NCBI GenBank assembly: GCA_002722615.1
Contig: PBMQ01000036.1
Span: 3,207 to 67,206, forward strand
DNA: 64,000 bases
Reading direction: 5' to 3'
Source of the DNA: Methanobacteriota archaeon
GTDB lineage: Archaea > Thermoplasmatota > Poseidoniia > Poseidoniales > Poseidoniaceae
Shown: piece by piece, positions 57,332 to 62,646 of the stretch
How positions within the stretch are numbered: the stretch's first letter is position 1
Layout of the letters: each line of letters starts with the position of its first letter
Notes under the pieces: generated by a model
Database searches by the model: none
Seen by the model: only the letters and a program-made list of their open reading frames with translations
What the model was told of the DNA's origin: nothing
Made by a program: the position numbers and the translations under genes

Positions 57332-60184
57332 GTGCGAAGCATCTGGTTAGCCTTGTTCATCCTTGTTGCGCCCCTGCCACTCGAGGGGGTGTTGGACGAC
57401 GAAATGTTCGATCAACACGAGGTTGTTCTCCAACTACCAGAAGGTGAGGTTTGGAGCCAGTTAGGCTGGATGGGCCTTGGTGAATTCAATTACGTCCCGC
57501 TCCGTTTATTGACGCCATCCGCATTGATTGCATGGAAGGTTAGTTCCGATGCATATCATCCGATTGCAGCTGAAACAAAGACAAGTGATGCTGTTTGGAA
57601 ATCTTATCCTTCAGAGGGTCAATCAGTAAGACTTGTTTTCGAACCCGGATTGCCCGATTCTGCTGTTGTACAACTTCACGACCAAATTCAGAGATTCATT
57701 GGTTACCAGCAGCTACTCTTTGACTCAGGACATTTGACGTCCGTAACTATCCAATGGGATACATCTTTCCAAATGGATTGGTTTGCTGAACTGGAAGGGG
57801 TTCTTTGGATTGAACCGCAGTTAAAGACTGGGGGGCGAAATTTCAATTCGGCGCAACTCTTGACCGGGACCGAAGGAAACGAATATCCCTCTGCATGGAA
57901 CGTTGGACTGAATGGGACAGGGGTAGTAATCGGTGTCGCGGATACCGGAATCGATTCGGATCACACCTGTTTCCGAAATCTATCTTCGGTTAATATTGGC
58001 CATGGACATCGTAAGTTGCTGCATGTGAATACATCCATTGACGGATGGGATAGTTCGGGCCATGCGGATTATCGTCATGGCACACATACAGCAGGAATCC
58101 TTGGTTGCCATCCATTAGGTACGGCTACTGAGGAAAATCTCCCTCCTGCTTACATGGCGATTGGTTATGAAACGCAACTGGTTGTGCAAGACATCGTTTC
58201 AGAAGAGGGGTGGCTTCCACCCGATGTTGATCTTCTCCTAGCAGAGTCTGCGATGTATGGAGGATATCTGCATTCGAACTCTTGGGGTGATGACACCACA
58301 GATTACACCTTGCGCTCAGGAGATTTTGATGCCTTTACTCGTGAATTCCCGTGGACTCTTCCGTTGATTGCACCAGGGAACAACGGTGGATTCGTATTGG
58401 AACCAGCCAACGCCCGTAACGTGATCGCCATTGGAGCTTCAACCAAAGATACGAATCCAGAACGGTGGTTGTCTTCAGTACATGGTCCGACAGATGCCGA
58501 TACTCGCGGTATTTTCGCACTTGCGCCAGGTGTTTCCATCGTTTCAGCTCGATCGGATGGAATGCCCGATTCATACAATGCAGGCCAGCATACATTGAGT
58601 GGAACCAGCATGTCAACGCCCATGGCTGCGTCCTATGCGAGCATCGTTCAGCAAATGGTACAAGATGGATGGTTAACGGGCCATAATGAAACACTATCAA
58701 CAACCAATCTTGAAAACATGGTCCCTTGGTTTGAAGATGAAGGAACTCAGAAGGACATCCTCTTGGGCGAGGGTTTCACCCCCTCGGCGCCAATGATGAA
58801 AGCATTGCTTTCACTTTCAACAACGCCGTTAGATGATTCATTTAGGAATGGTGGTGACGGTGGTTCAACTGCTCCAAACTCACACGATGGATGGGGTGTA
58901 TTCAACCTTGAAGAATTGTTGAATATTAATCAATTGCGAGCGCTCTCTACAGAAGAAAATCGGCCCGTGGAAAACATATGGATTCATGACTCCTACCGTC
59001 TCATAAACGGCTCACCTTCCAATCAATTGGCAACACGAATGGGTGCTTCAGGACCAATCGAAAATTTGATGCAACAATCATGGGATGGGTCTGGTTCTGT
59101 TGGCCCTTTCCTTTCAACTGGTGATGTGTTTCAACAGCGATTCATCCTACAAGGAAACGAGTCTCTCGATGTGCGACTCGCGATCCAAGCAAAGCCTGAA
59201 CCTCACCTTGTGGACGATGTGCAGCTCATGGTTCGATTGCCAGATGGTCGTTTTGCACTAGGGGAACAATATCGTCAAGATGGTCGTTCAATGCTGTATT
59301 ACGACTTTGCAGACCATCTCAACACGAGTGCCTTCCCGCCAACAAATGAAACCACGGTAGGAATTTACCTTGATGAAAGTACTCTAAGTGGGATTGATTA
59401 TGTCGATGTCGTCGTTTCTGGACGATATGTCACGCCGGGTAACAACCCTGGGACTCTCGGTGTTGAAGGAGATCGTATTGGATTTGGCCTAGCGGTCAAA
59501 GGCGTAGAGATTGACCCATTGAATCATTCAGATGCCGATGGGGACGATGTTCCCTACGAGCAAGACAGTTGTCCGTTTACGAACGCTACTGGCTGGGATA
59601 TTGACCAAGATGGATGTATTGACGATGTTGATGAAGACGGTGTTGAAGACAATCAAGATGACTGTCTTTCCACACATCCTGATGTGCCTGTTACCTCATC
59701 TGGCTGTGCACAACAAAATCAAGCGCCACGGATTTTTGTCGACGAAGTGATACTGCAAGCGCATGATAATGAAACGATCTCTCTTCTCTTTTCTGTTTTG
59801 GATTCGGATAGCGTATCAGTAGAGGCTCTTCTCGATCGTCAAGGTCCAAATCCTGGAACCGTATCAATTTGTGAGCGTCTCGTCATAAACGATTCTTGGC
59901 AATCATGTTCTGTTAAGGTAAATCAGGACTTCTTTCCATTGTCGCCCGGCGGCAACTGGACGGTTGTTGTAATCGCACAAGACATGAACTCAAGTTGGTG
60001 GACTTCGCCAGAATTAACAGAATATGAATCAGAAACATTCGAGATTTTCGTACCTTTGCCTGCGGCTGAATTGTCTGTATCCAGTGTGAGTTCGTGGTTC
60101 TCTATGGCCGTAATTGCCTCGATTGTTTCAGCAATCCTATTTGGAACGATTCTTCAGCGTTGGATATCTGAGGAAATTGACTGA
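57332..60184 (+). CDS. secreted subtilisin-like serine protease (S8) with Ca-binding TSP3-like Asp-rich repeats and C-terminal TM anchor
   Basis: Signal 'MRSIWLALFILVAPLPLEG' (GTG start). Catalytic triad 'VIGVADTGIDSDH', 'HGTHTAGIL', 'LSGTSMSTPMAA'. 'DADGDDVPYEQDSCPF...DIDQDGCIDDVDEDGVEDNQDDC'. C-terminal 'MAVIASIVSAILFGTIL'. Confidence 0.88.
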   Translation: MRSIWLALFILVAPLPLEGVLDDEMFDQHEVVLQLPEGEVWSQLGWMGLGEFNYVPLRLLTPSALIAWKVSSDAYHPIAAETKTSDAVWKSYPSEGQSVRLVFEPGLPDSAVVQLHDQIQRFIGYQQLLFDSGHLTSVTIQWDTSFQMDWFAELEGVLWIEPQLKTGGRNFNSAQLLTGTEGNEYPSAWNVGLNGTGVVIGVADTGIDSDHTCFRNLSSVNIGHGHRKLLHVNTSIDGWDSSGHADYRHGTHTAGILGCHPLGTATEENLPPAYMAIGYETQLVVQDIVSEEGWLPPDVDLLLAESAMYGGYLHSNSWGDDTTDYTLRSGDFDAFTREFPWTLPLIAPGNNGGFVLEPANARNVIAIGASTKDTNPERWLSSVHGPTDADTRGIFALAPGVSIVSARSDGMPDSYNAGQHTLSGTSMSTPMAASYASIVQQMVQDGWLTGHNETLSTTNLENMVPWFEDEGTQKDILLGEGFTPSAPMMKALLSLSTTPLDDSFRNGGDGGSTAPNSHDGWGVFNLEELLNINQLRALSTEENRPVENIWIHDSYRLINGSPSNQLATRMGASGPIENLMQQSWDGSGSVGPFLSTGDVFQQRFILQGNESLDVRLAIQAKPEPHLVDDVQLMVRLPDGRFALGEQYRQDGRSMLYYDFADHLNTSAFPPTNETTVGIYLDESTLSGIDYVDVVVSGRYVTPGNNPGTLGVEGDRIGFGLAVKGVEIDPLNHSDADGDDVPYEQDSCPFTNATGWDIDQDGCIDDVDEDGVEDNQDDCLSTHPDVPVTSSGCAQQNQAPRIFVDEVILQAHDNETISLLFSVLDSDSVSVEALLDRQGPNPGTVSICERLVINDSWQSCSVKVNQDFFPLSPGGNWTVVVIAQDMNSSWWTSPELTEYESETFEIFVPLPAAELSVSSVSSWFSMAVIASIVSAILFGTILQRWISEEID

Positions 60185-60265
60185 TTTTCGATTAAAATCC
60201 TCATCGTATACAGGGGCTATCTTCAAACCTTATGGCATCCACGCTGGGATAACCGAGAGGTGTTC

Positions 60266-61273
60266 ATGATGAGCGAACGATTATATGTTGGAATTGACCT
60301 AGGAACGTTTCAGTCGACAATTGCATCCAGCGCTGGCGCTATGCATTCCATTGAGACTGTTGTTGGACGACCAAAAGACCCTGTTGCACGAAATTTCCTA
60401 AAGCGAGACGTTCTGTTTGGGGCTGACGCTCTGAAGAACAAACTCGCATGCAATCTCTACCGCCCAATGGCGGCTGGAGTTACACAGGATGATGAGGCGA
60501 ACCTCGCTGCTGCCAAGGCATTCGTTTCCCACCTCATTGAAACTGTTGATCCTGAGGAATTCGACGAGGTTTTCGGTGTCATCTGCTCTCCAAGTCACGT
60601 ATCGTTTACCGACAAGAGCAATCTTGTTGCAACACTCCGTGGGCAAGTTAACGCAATCATGGTCGTAACAGAACCGTTCGCAACTGCATTCGCTATTGAC
60701 GAAATCGGTGGTTCAATTGTTGTTGACGTTGGTGCTGGTACAACAGACATTGCTCGAATCCACGGAACATTCCCAAGCGACGAAGACCAAGTCACAATCC
60801 AAGAAGCTGGTGATTGGCTCGATTTGGAACTCATGAACCTGATCGCTAAAAAATTCACAGGCGCTCAAATCACTAAGGACATGGTCCGAAAGTGGAAGGA
60901 AGAATCCTCCTACGTCGGTGGAGATGTTCGAACTGTTGAAGTCTCACTCTCCGTTGATGGAAAGAGTCAGAACGTCGACATTGGCGACCTTATCCAGGAG
61001 GCTTGTGACTTGTTAGTCCCAAAGGTTGCTAACGCAATCAAGCGAATTGTTGCTGAAGCAGACCCTGAGTACCAACCTGTCCTACGTAACAACATCATCC
61101 TCTCAGGAGGAGGTTCTCTTATCGAAGGGCTCGCTGAGCGTGTTGCTCGGGAAATCGCTGATATCGGTGATGTAAATGTCTGGTGTGTTGAAAACCCATT
61201 GGAAAAGGTCGCTGAAGGTGCTCTTATGCTCGCAGGTCAAATGCCTGATGACATGTACACCTCCATCAACTGA
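60266..61273 (+). CDS. actin-fold ATPase, MamK-like
   Basis: Phosphate-1 'YVGIDLGTFQS', 'VVGRPKD', 'MVVTEPFATAFAI', phosphate-2 'IVVDVGAGTTDIARIHGTFPSDEDQVTIQEAGDWLD', 'DPEYQPVL', adenosine 'IILSGGGSLIEGLAERV', 'GDVNVWCVENP'. GAGAGGTG precedes ATG 60266. Confidence 0.75.
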   Translation: MMSERLYVGIDLGTFQSTIASSAGAMHSIETVVGRPKDPVARNFLKRDVLFGADALKNKLACNLYRPMAAGVTQDDEANLAAAKAFVSHLIETVDPEEFDEVFGVICSPSHVSFTDKSNLVATLRGQVNAIMVVTEPFATAFAIDEIGGSIVVDVGAGTTDIARIHGTFPSDEDQVTIQEAGDWLDLELMNLIAKKFTGAQITKDMVRKWKEESSYVGGDVRTVEVSLSVDGKSQNVDIGDLIQEACDLLVPKVANAIKRIVAEADPEYQPVLRNNIILSGGGSLIEGLAERVAREIADIGDVNVWCVENPLEKVAEGALMLAGQMPDDMYTSIN

Positions 61274-61365
61274 TTTGGTTGAAGAAATTCACTCTGAAAT
61301 CAGACGCTTTATGCCTTGATTTACAGGGAAGGTTCAAGAGTGGTTGAGGTTCGATAGACTCTCGT

Positions 61366-62646
61366 ATGACGCTCGGCGCTTCCAATCCAGATGCCTCCCG
61401 TGGGCAACCAACAAGTTCTGGTAACGATAGAGCGGCTCTTGAGGGGATGTTGAAAAGCTACCCTATTGACCAACTCGTCGAAGAAGTCCTCATCGCATGG
61501 GATGAACTTGGTCAGCGTAATGAAGAAGTCGTTACAACCAAGCAACGTCTTCGTGTTTTGGAACTCGATTTAGCAGAACGCGAAGATGAAGTTGCACCTG
61601 AAATTCAACGCCTCCATCAAAGTGAACAACAGCTTAAGGAAGCAGAAGCACGAATTGTCCACCTTGATCGATTGTTAAATGACACACGACAAGAACTCGA
61701 TGCTCAAGCTTCATCACTTTCAAAAGATCAGCAAGACGCGCTTCACGAAGAAGTTGATCAACTTCGAACGCTCAGTGTATCCCAGGATGAGGTCATCGCT
61801 GAAATGGAAGGGCGTATGGGCCTTATGGTTGAAGCCCTCGAGAAGGCAGCGGATGCAGGATTAACATCAGTTACCGCCGATGAAGTGCGCTCGCTGAAGA
61901 ATCAACTCAATGAAAAATCAGCACAATACGATGCTGAAGTTGCTGCCAATAATGCGCTTGATGAAGAACGACAACGGCTGAGAGATATTGCAGATCGGAT
62001 GCGTGGTCTCTTGGATGCTCGAGACAAGCGTTTGGCTGATTTGGAAGAACAACTCGAGCGTGTTATGCAAGGACCTCGTTCCGTATCTGCAGAGCATGAC
62101 TATCTCGTAGAACAGATTGAAGAGATGAAGCGTCGATTGCTTGAGCGAAATCGAGAGTATGAATCTCTCCGACGTCGAGAGCGCCGTCTGCACACTGATG
62201 TGTTTGAACGCGATGAGCGAATTCAACAAATGTCACTCACCATCACAGATCTTGAGGCCGCCCTCACGGATAGAGTTGCAGAAATCCGCGAGCTTGAATC
62301 ACAAAATGACATTGCAATGCAAGAAGTCAATAGTGTTCGAAGAGGCGAGCGAACCCGAGAGGTTGTTGGTCGTGTCTTTGCAGACTCGTTGTCGTTGGTT
62401 CGAGGCCATGATGCCCGCGAGGCAAAGCGGGAAGCCTACGCCAACAGTCCTGATGTTGAACGTAGCCTATCCACTCCTAGTTCCGATGATATGCGCAATC
62501 TTGCAGATGGTGGCACCGTTGATTTGAGCGTTGAAGAAACTGAACTTCCACAAGGTATGGATGTTGATGGAACACGTCCGCCATCACCCGGTGGCAGTGG
62601 AGACCCTGTTCTCTTTGATGAAGAGTCAGAGAACCCCGATGAGTGA
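61366..62646 (+). CDS. long coiled-coil protein with acidic C-terminal tail
   Basis: 426 aa. About 300 aa of heptad-like E/R/L/Q-rich sequence ('LRVLELDLAEREDEV', 'RLADLEEQLERV', 'ESLRRRERRLHTDV'). Disordered acidic C-terminus. Lies 92 nt downstream of the MamK-like gene. Confidence 0.6.
   Translation: MTLGASNPDASRGQPTSSGNDRAALEGMLKSYPIDQLVEEVLIAWDELGQRNEEVVTTKQRLRVLELDLAEREDEVAPEIQRLHQSEQQLKEAEARIVHLDRLLNDTRQELDAQASSLSKDQQDALHEEVDQLRTLSVSQDEVIAEMEGRMGLMVEALEKAADAGLTSVTADEVRSLKNQLNEKSAQYDAEVAANNALDEERQRLRDIADRMRGLLDARDKRLADLEEQLERVMQGPRSVSAEHDYLVEQIEEMKRRLLERNREYESLRRRERRLHTDVFERDERIQQMSLTITDLEAALTDRVAEIRELESQNDIAMQEVNSVRRGERTREVVGRVFADSLSLVRGHDAREAKREAYANSPDVERSLSTPSSDDMRNLADGGTVDLSVEETELPQGMDVDGTRPPSPGGSGDPVLFDEESENPDE

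Follow-up and report, generated by a model that had tools for sequence, protein, structure and literature searches.

What would an actin that resembles MamK, the filament protein of bacterial magnetosomes, be doing in a planktonic archaeon, beside a gene for a long coiled-coil protein? The question is raised by positions 60,266 to 62,646 of a 64,000-nucleotide (nt) stretch of DNA (contig PBMQ01000036.1 of assembly GCA_002722615.1, positions 3,207 to 67,206, family Poseidoniaceae; this whole stretch is called the window below), in which an actin-fold gene is followed on the same strand by a gene for a coiled-coil protein, here termed the partner. An earlier note on this DNA had read the two genes as a filament module probably acquired from bacteria. 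The reading we favor, and hold to be probable, is that they form a cytoskeletal locus of Marine Group II (MGII) archaea that is inherited vertically and under strong constraint, in which a MamK-type filament actin and a lineage-specific adaptor, cross-linker or scaffold would organize or partition something inside the cell.

A MamK-like actin on a branch of its own

Among the NCBIfam models, the MamK family (NF040964) describes the window actin best and over its full length (330.9 bits, E-value 7.8e-99), followed by BeeR (208 bits), MreB (78), salactin (39) and crenactin (17). A sequence search of the PDB likewise ranks three MamK entries first (5JYG, 5LJV and 5LJW; E ~1e-60), then BeeR (8R2N; 6.5e-38, 134 bits) and then MreB (1e-13 and weaker), and the phmmer alignment runs collinearly from actin residues 4-331 to MamK residues 10-338 with only one gap, of 1 residue. 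Pfam, lacking a model for MamK, ranks MreB_Mbl first (80 bits, 1.6e-22), which accounts for the name 'rod shape-determining protein' that the protein bears in public records; the NCBI and JGI entries read 'rod shape-determining protein MreB' or 'hypothetical'. With such E-values in Pfam, NCBIfam and the PDB search, the actin-fold ATPase motifs recognized in the earlier note are real and far beyond chance.

A template-free AlphaFold 2 (AF2) model of the actin, built on a 27-sequence family alignment, reached a mean predicted local distance difference test score (pLDDT) of 90.7 and a predicted TM-score (pTM) of 0.87. Its best Foldseek match is the MamK filament subunit 5LJV (TM 0.93/0.96, root-mean-square deviation 1.6 Å), with BeeR (TM 0.86) and then MreB and eukaryotic actins (~0.8) as runners-up. 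Actin residues E136 and D154 correspond to MamK E143 and D161 and stand in conserved columns of the family alignment, where D11, G13, E136, D154, G156, T159 and G281 are invariant or nearly so. Both the MamK-type fold and the nucleotide-binding and hydrolysis residues looked for in NF040964 are thus present: the protein has the fold of a MamK-like actin, its catalytic residues are intact, and the constraint on it is very strong. That MamK is a better description than MreB, crenactin or Hsp70, as had been proposed, is upheld by the hidden Markov model (HMM) scores, the PDB sequence search and the predicted fold, and the same holds against salactin, volactin and BeeR.

Several other actin families were tried and set aside. 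BeeR supplies the second-best solved structure (8R2N) and the second-best family model; its alignment to the MGII actin needs gaps of 4 and 12 residues, and its 208 bits compare with an equivalog cut-off of 530. Salactin scores 31 bits in Pfam, just over its cut-off of 27.1 and far under MamK, and 39 bits against a cut-off of 400 in NCBIfam; volactin reaches 26.4 bits against 35, and crenactin 17 against 630. At E<=0.01 the PDB sequence search returned no match to Ta0583, and Pfam and NCBIfam none to the ParM and Alp families. Salactin, volactin, crenactin and Ta0583 are archaeal actin-fold filament proteins too, set apart from the MGII actin by very low scores.

The position of the actin among its relatives was examined by an exhaustive HMMER search of 1.84 billion cluster representatives. 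MGII actins make up one full-length cluster at 50% identity, and the next matches have at most 45% identity. Fragment clusters at 60-72% identity were considered as a divergent second lineage and rejected; they (L083 and L084) are frameshifted long-read or low-coverage assemblies with the same synteny. In the other searches that could have reached MGIIb and further Thermoplasmatota, the matches listed were all at least 82% identical. The top-scoring relatives are proteins of 523-1232 amino acids (aa) with a C-terminal actin domain, the two named members being from bacteria of candidate division KSB1, and further relatives belong to Verrucomicrobiota and to anaerobic methanotrophic (ANME-2)/Methanosarcinales archaea. 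Identity of the MGII actin to the non-magnetosome MamK-like actins is 35-46%, and all ten of the relatives tested score best on the MamK model (333-425 bits).

In a neighbor-joining tree (Kimura distances, 86 taxa, 330 columns, 200 bootstraps, rooted on MreB), the MGII actins are monophyletic with 100% bootstrap on a long stem, and the KSB1 clade receives 98.5%. Bootstrap falls to 46% for the grouping of MGII with all MamK-like clades to the exclusion of BeeR-like proteins, and to 23.5% for MGII with KSB1. With deep-node support of at most 46%, MGII lies outside the group that holds the MamK of strain AMB-1 and outside the BeeR-like clade; the archaeal members, MGII and ANME-2, are patchy and not grouped together. 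HMMs built from the clades of this tree and scored on the window actin gave 377 bits for KSB1, 376 for ANME-2/Verrucomicrobiota, 340 for the unnamed clade C, 337 for the canonical MamK side, 295 for the unnamed clade E and 252 for the BeeR-like clade. Tree and clade scores together place the window actin as a distinct, long-branched subfamily of a wider, mostly bacterial MamK-like assemblage, and as an orthologue of neither magnetosome MamK nor MreB, BeeR, salactin, volactin, crenactin or ParM.

Membership in the MamK family, as claimed earlier, therefore stands at the level of family likeness and does not extend to the magnetosome protein itself: global identity to Magnetospirillum magneticum MamK is 32.9%, the score of 331 bits is short of the 400-bit cut-off, and the tree puts MGII outside the canonical magnetosome group. 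The HMM and phylogeny check that the earlier note proposed gave a divided answer in the same sense, with best scores on MamK-like models and a branch of MGII's own, joined to the MamK-like clades at 46%. The characterized archaeal actins that it named were crenactin, Ta0583-type and Asgard actins. MGII is not the sole archaeal case of a MamK-like actin; ANME-2/Methanosarcinales metagenome-assembled genomes (MAGs) encode them too.

The coiled-coil partner and the locus across Poseidoniales

Orthologous loci were taken from a scan of one genome per GTDB species, which yielded 267 actin relatives; the best 80 (L001-L080, 832 kb) are all on Marine Group II contigs, among them the first MG-II genome (CM001443.1), and 79 are informative for the pair, each with at least 300 nt after the actin gene. 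The partner gene is present in 79 of these 79 Poseidoniales loci, which answers in the affirmative the question of its conservation in related bins. The spacer between the two genes measures 92 nt in 59 loci and 91-98 nt in 77; the exceptions measure 415 nt and 2277 nt. The longer of these, in L008 (7080-9190) from one Poseidoniales MAG, holds genes for a 473-aa multi-pass membrane protein and a 228-aa protein.

A block of ribosomal protein L18Ae, S8 subtilase, actin, partner and geranylgeranylglyceryl phosphate (GGGP) synthase is syntenic in every locus, which shows vertical inheritance, over the entire family as sampled. Within this block the actin is the most conserved gene, with 83-99% identity across the 80 Poseidoniales loci. 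The partner ranges from 61 to 98%, with 65-98% for its orthologues in the 79 informative loci, the S8 protease from 26 to 89%, L18Ae from 54 to 95% and GGGP synthase from 46 to 95%, the lowest values coming from alignments cut by contig ends; without such cut alignments GGGP synthase spans 60-95%. Nonsynonymous divergence (dN) of the actin is about one third of that of GGGP synthase. Relative to synonymous divergence (dS), the ratio dN/dS amounts to 0.015-0.08 in the actin and 0.03-0.12 in the partner; in distant pairs dS is saturated. Both genes are under strong purifying selection.

The two open reading frames (ORFs), their shared strand and the gap of exactly 92 nt between the actin stop codon and the partner start (Table 1) are as the earlier note gave them, save for a small correction to the actin start codon. 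The actin frame could begin at GTG 60260 (337 aa), ATG 60266 (335 aa) or ATG 60269 (334 aa). Since only the second ATG is conserved, in 79 of 79 orthologous loci (codon 1 is ATG in 13 of 79), the product is most likely 334 aa long.

Table 1. Coordinates of the actin-partner locus in the window (AF2 entries are predictions)
Feature	Position	Strand	Description and basis
Conserved region upstream of actin gene	60213..60262	+	Alignment of 76 distinct upstream regions
MamK-like actin-fold ATPase gene	60269..61273	+	334 aa from conserved ATG; ORF, NCBIfam, PDB, AF2, Foldseek, dN/dS
Actin-partner spacer, 92 nt	61274..61365	+	Element GGGAAGGTTCAAGAGTGG at 61326-61343, core 8-mer AAGGTTCA at 61329-61336
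Gene for 426-aa lineage-specific coiled-coil protein (partner)	61366..62646	+	ORF, AF2 secondary structure, orthologues in 79/79 loci
Conserved N-terminal block, partner residues 22-79	61429..61602	+	RAALEGMLKSYP..QLVEEVLIAW...KQRLRVLELDLAERED.VAPE; column conservation, 70 orthologues
Nearly invariant core, partner residues 200-300	61963..62265	+	Spans helix break at MQGPRSVSAEHDY
Acidic disordered tail, partner residues 361-426	62446..62643	+	Net charge -15; pLDDT <50 at 398-426

The partner is predicted by AF2 to begin with a short disordered head, to continue as a helical rod of four segments and to end in a disordered, acidic tail, with helices at residues 19-31 (short), 34-117, 120-163, 168-235 and 241-360; the whole protein has an isoelectric point (pI) of 4.55 and a net charge of -41. 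The description of a long coiled coil with an acidic disordered tail is thereby confirmed, the prediction being almost wholly helical and the tail strongly negative. Conservation along the rod is uneven. Column conservation averages 0.90-0.98 over residues 201-300 among 70 orthologues, and most columns of this core are invariant across 19 sequences of 70-92% overall identity, so marking it as the best candidate for a specific interaction surface. Further conserved blocks lie at residues 141-178 and 324-349, and the motif RPPSPGGSGDPVL (residues 404-416, nt 62575-62613) is conserved amid an otherwise variable tail. Such block-wise conservation fits specific binding surfaces and a short linear motif, and not a generic spacer rod; it differs from plain heptad conservation and counts in favor of a link between the two genes.

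Pfam and NCBIfam returned only noise-level coiled-coil matches to the partner (SMC, crescentin rod, a 15-bit SAB domain), far below cut-offs, and no recognizable DNA-binding domain. Two families were considered by name and rejected: SMC, at 33 bits against a cut-off of 729, matches through its coiled-coil part only (model positions 709-986) and not through the flanking ABC-type ATPase heads, the partner being an all-helical rod plus tail, and the crescentin rod (Rod_CreS) scores 15.5 bits against 100. In layout the partner does recall crescentin, which also has a head, a segmented rod and a tail; the sequence match is at noise level. The function of crescentin depends on the actin MreB. The 120 best database matches of the partner are all 70-98% identical to it and mostly labelled hypothetical, with Poseidoniales, Euryarchaeota and uncultured archaeon as the named organisms. 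No homologue was found outside Poseidoniales among the matches examined, nor beside the bacterial MamK-like actins examined.

The noncoding sequence before each gene is also conserved. Upstream of the actin, the block GGGGCTATCTTCAAACC occupies positions 60213-60229 of the window, where most orthologues read ...GAACCTTGAAGG...; ATGGCA follows at 60232-60237 and a Shine-Dalgarno-like GAGAGGTG at 60255-60262, just upstream of the start. The spacer, which contains neither a T-run terminator nor iterons, has an element conserved across 73 distinct spacers and not repeated elsewhere in the window as a general motif. The core 8-mer of this element, AAGGTTCA, occurs in 59 of 77 actin-partner spacers and again, on the opposite strand, within the upstream actin block of 42 of 79 loci; of its 118 occurrences in the 832 kb, 101 fall in the 90 nt before the actin gene or between the actin and partner genes. 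Only the spacer copy is intact in the window, the actin-side copy having diverged to CTTCAAACC. No repeat arrays of ParC-like or centromere-like type were found upstream or in the spacer, and no Rfam families in the locus. The shared 8-mer suggests common regulation of two separately initiated transcripts, and it is possibly a shared operator or promoter element.

The locus is flanked by housekeeping genes: by Pfam and NCBIfam annotation these are ribosomal protein L18Ae, prefoldin, FtsY, the S8 protease and GGGP synthase, the last an archaeal ether-lipid enzyme. The exact window actin sequence is found on 51 public contigs, proteins of Poseidoniales MAGs match it at 99-100% identity, and the named database proteins 94-100% identical to it are those of a Poseidoniales or Poseidoniaceae archaeon. 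Because of these archaeal flanking genes and the matches to named Poseidoniales and Marine Group II, the host is an MGIIa-type Marine Group II archaeon of the Poseidoniaceae, in agreement with the earlier attribution to an archaeal genome. Three of the orthologous loci (L014, L017 and L050) carry actin genes 84-96% identical in MGII synteny, yet were deposited under the bacterial MAG names 'uncultured Rhodobiaceae bacterium', 'Salipiger bermudensis' and 'Candidatus Microthrix sp.'. L014 and L017 also bear archaeal genes for L18Ae and GGGP synthase, and L050 has only a 70-aa GGGP synthase fragment at its contig end; all three are almost certainly mis-binned archaeal contigs.

As the earlier note had said of the window, no magnetosome gene accompanies the pair in the 18 kb annotated around the locus. 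The same 18 kb contain no transposase or integrase, the annotated neighborhood has no mreCD or peptidoglycan genes near the locus, and a viral search found no viral contig with a relative. Base composition is uniform along the window, and that of the locus is genome-typical. In view of the conserved housekeeping synteny, the uniform composition, and the absence of mobile-element genes and viral copies, recent transfer of the locus is excluded.

The S8 subtilase upstream of the actin (57332-60184, 950 aa) has an N-terminal signal-like segment and a C-terminal hydrophobic anchor, and weak matches to Ca-binding repeat-containing myxobacterial surface proteins (TraB/MtsC). Syntenic in all loci, it evolves fast, identity being 37-89% where alignments cover nearly the full length. 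In the unrelated locus L089, too, a large S8/FG-GAP protein adjoins a MamK-like actin, probably by coincidence. At the other end, the partner gene and the convergent GGGP synthase gene overlap by 21 nt at their 3' ends (62626-62646), with imperfect inverted repeats around the overlap.

MamK-like actins elsewhere and known filament systems

Coiled-coil proteins stand beside MamK-like actins in other lineages as well. In ANME-2 (L086:6001-12925) a 358-aa MamK-like actin is followed, 26 nt on, by a gene for a 1940-aa repetitive coiled-coil protein. A 178-aa coiled-coil gene lies 72 nt downstream of the actin in L089, a partly coiled-coil protein is encoded ~900 nt downstream in L087, and a small protein encoded upstream of the actin in L085 combines a transmembrane segment with a coiled coil. 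In the KSB1 proteins the actin itself is part of a fusion, which opens with a short coiled coil and goes on with a long disordered region of acidic character. None of the compared partners (ANME-2, KSB1) shows detectable homology to that of MGII: profile comparisons with the N-terminus of the ANME-2 giant and with the KSB1 N-terminus gave probabilities below 1%, and BLAST against the 1940-aa protein gave E >= 0.047. Judged by sequence, coiled-coil neighbors or fusions recur beside MamK-like actins and are non-homologous among themselves.

Some of these loci have further features of their own. The 1940-aa protein of ANME-2 starts with a distinct domain and carries the motif VPV.EGYENFDEL.SFF..LKK twice; no Pfam match to the protein is on record. 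The KSB1 loci (L081:4864-13716, L082:4163-11326) encode a fusion of 906-1232 aa, in which the MamK-like actin at the C-terminus is preceded by a disordered stretch rich in acidic residues and Pro and by a basic patch, and then a second MamK-like actin of ~346 aa, three Roadblock/LC7 proteins (one PatA_N) and a small GTPase of Arf/Ras-like type. The arrangement resembles a pair of actins coupled to a polarity switch of the MglA/MglB type. A MamK-like actin 40% identical to that of the window (P0255) lies within a chemotaxis operon in L090 (1-4507), in the order CheA fragment, CheC, CheD, actin, a 291-aa non-coiled-coil protein and CheC, an arrangement that hints at a role of some family members in chemosensory or motility machinery.

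Among known systems, the magnetosome MamK of Magnetospirillum (5LJV, 5LJW, 5JYG) is the best sequence, profile and fold match to the MGII actin, with ~328 collinear residues and the catalytic Glu and Asp shared. It also works with adaptors (MamJ, MamY, McaA/B); both systems have an acidic or adaptor-type partner encoded nearby. The MGII locus, however, lies in an archaeal host, has no magnetosome cluster and a partner unrelated to MamJ, and its neighbors are housekeeping genes, unlike those of a magnetosome MamK in the strict sense. The non-magnetosome MamK-like actins of Saltatorellus ferox, the KSB1 fusions and ANME-2 belong to the same broad assemblage as the MGII actin; the MGII locus has no counterpart of the second actin, the Roadblock proteins and the small GTPase of the KSB1 loci. 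When expressed in E. coli, the MamK-like protein of Saltatorellus, which is not magnetotactic, assembles into filaments (bioRxiv 10.1101/817700). Desulfovibrio magneticus RS-1 has a network in which the coiled-coil proteins Mad20/23/25/26 work jointly with the actin-like MamK and Mad28 (PMC12748827). It follows a like logic, with dedicated coiled-coil proteins and MamK-type actins placing intracellular structures. That network is bacterial and has a known cargo, the magnetosomes; no homology of its Mad proteins to the MGII partner was seen, though no search aimed at it was made, and the MGII pair belongs to another domain of life. Crenactin, too, is encoded beside partner proteins, the arcadins (PMC5173319).

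Competing readings and the meaning of the pair

On the reading we favor, the MGII actin would bind and hydrolyze ATP and polymerize, and on the strength of its predicted fold, its collinearity with MamK and its conserved catalytic residues we are highly confident that it forms ATP-dependent MamK-type filaments. With moderate confidence, the coiled-coil partner, in its intermediate-filament-like layout, may be taken to bind or organize these filaments as an adaptor, cross-linker or scaffold; contact might be made through its nearly invariant core or through the C-terminal motif RPPSPGGSGDPVL. The system would then organize or partition something intracellular, be it the nucleoid, a polar apparatus or another structure. 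MGIIa cells are cocci of 0.7 µm diameter (PMC6864105), and since there are no cell-wall or magnetosome genes near the locus either, a role in positioning or partitioning is favored over one in rod shape, with a confidence that we would place between low and moderate. A bolder version, that Poseidoniaceae own a dedicated MamK-type cytomotive filament with a newly evolved coiled-coil adaptor that positions or partitions an intracellular structure or polar apparatus, is possible and is put forward tentatively.

A number of observations weigh against this picture. Polymerization, ATPase activity and contact between actin and partner are all things that we infer. The actin misses the NF040964 membership cut-off (330.9 against 400 bits), and its predicted likeness to MamK is partly expected, because the AF2 alignment contained MamK-family sequences. 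At the position of MamK A278, where the change A278D blocks polymerization, as in the non-polymerizing crystal form 5LJW, the window actin and some of its relatives have a proline, which is neutral and not acidic, and not identical either. The partner model has a pTM of 0.34, and its tertiary and quaternary arrangement is left undefined by the model. Synteny extends over the whole block, so that a functional link to the partner in particular does not follow from adjacency alone; the two genes inserted between the pair in L008 and the 415-nt gap in another locus further imply that co-transcription is not obligatory. The comparison with other MamK-like loci rests on a small sample of eight lineages, and in L090, as in the downstream gene of L085, there is no coiled-coil neighbor.

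One alternative is that the actin is a genuine MamK-like filament protein and the coiled-coil gene a mere syntenic neighbor of unrelated function, for example a nucleoid or envelope scaffold. It draws on the little that adjacency discriminates in a neighborhood syntenic in all loci, on the partner's own conserved upstream element and the 2.3-kb insertion that separates the pair in L008, and on the partner's lack of homology to any known actin-binding protein in a world where coiled-coil proteins are common. We nonetheless consider it unlikely, given the shared strand, a spacer of nearly constant length in 77 of 79 loci, the near-restriction of one 8-mer to the regions upstream of the two genes, the similarly strong constraint on both genes, and the independent recurrence of coiled-coil neighbors or fusions in ANME-2, L089 and KSB1. 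Were the pair instead to partition DNA in the manner of ParMRC or salactin, the actin would move chromosomes or replicons by pushing or pulling, and the coiled-coil protein would link it to DNA as an adaptor. The order of actin and then adaptor gene is indeed that of ParM and ParR, a shape role is less obvious in coccoid cells (PMC6864105), and salactin, whose closest family is reported to be MamK, affects DNA partitioning in Halobacterium (PMC10746226). This account appears improbable, for the actin has no ParM or Alp match at E<=0.01 and salactin models reach only 31-39 bits, repeat arrays of a centromere-like kind are absent from the spacer and the upstream region, the partner is acidic, far larger than ParR and has no recognizable DNA-binding domain, and the locus is chromosomal, amid housekeeping genes.

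Acquisition of the two genes as a unit from bacteria, as the earlier note had it, gains some color from the overwhelmingly bacterial make-up of the MamK-like assemblage, whose top relatives are KSB1 and Verrucomicrobiota, and from the patchy, ungrouped archaeal members in the tree. We think it very improbable all the same. Signs of recent or mobile acquisition are lacking (composition is genome-typical, mobile-element genes and viral copies are absent, and the housekeeping neighborhood is conserved); the partner has no detectable homologue outside Poseidoniales among the matches examined, including the neighborhoods of bacterial MamK-like actins; and MGII forms one fully supported, long-stemmed branch, consistent with a single old event or with vertical descent. 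An ancient bacterial origin of the actin alone is plausible, at deep-node bootstrap values of no more than 46%. The public annotation, by which the protein would be an MreB orthologue determining rod shape, has in its favor the top Pfam match to MreB_Mbl (80 bits) and the name used by NCBI and JGI, and is scarcely credible: the NCBIfam MreB models give 61-78 bits against cut-offs of 293-515, compared with 331 bits for MamK, the Foldseek TM is ~0.8 to MreB versus 0.93 to MamK, the protein starts MMSERLYVGIDLG, with no room for an N-terminal amphipathic helix, no mreCD or peptidoglycan genes lie nearby, and the cells are cocci (PMC6864105).

We return, then, to the reading of a vertically inherited MamK-type actin and lineage-specific partner, and to what it would mean. 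In the literature that could be searched, we found no paper linking MGII or Poseidoniales with MreB, MamK or actin, and the main text of the salactin paper (PMC10746226) mentions neither Marine Group nor Thermoplasma. What is new is an archaeal subfamily within the MamK-like actins, together with a coiled-coil partner that is new as well and specific to the lineage; the diversity of prokaryotic actins was already known, so that the pair is not conceptually surprising and by itself resolves no long-standing question. Its recognition as MamK-like extends the family into planktonic archaea, and shows the labels 'MreB' and 'hypothetical' to be misleading for a coccoid archaeon with no peptidoglycan genes at the locus.

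GGGP synthase is an essential enzyme of lipid synthesis. Because the actin changes more slowly than this nearby gene and keeps the same neighbor in every genome examined, the pair ranks as a strong candidate for a central component of cell organization in this lineage. Marine Group II is abundant in surface ocean plankton and has no cultured representative (PMC6461757), for which reason its cell biology is essentially unknown. The pair offers a testable two-protein system, as heterologous expression requires no culture of the host, and adds a further data point to the emerging pattern of MamK-type actins with coiled-coil partners. If the bolder version is true, no MamK-type cytoskeleton would have been shown at work in an archaeon before this one, whose hosts are among the most abundant archaea of the surface ocean; and MGII, ANME-2, KSB1 and magnetotactic bacteria would together illustrate a general rule, by which MamK-like actins are re-targeted to new cargo through the swapping of coiled-coil adaptors.

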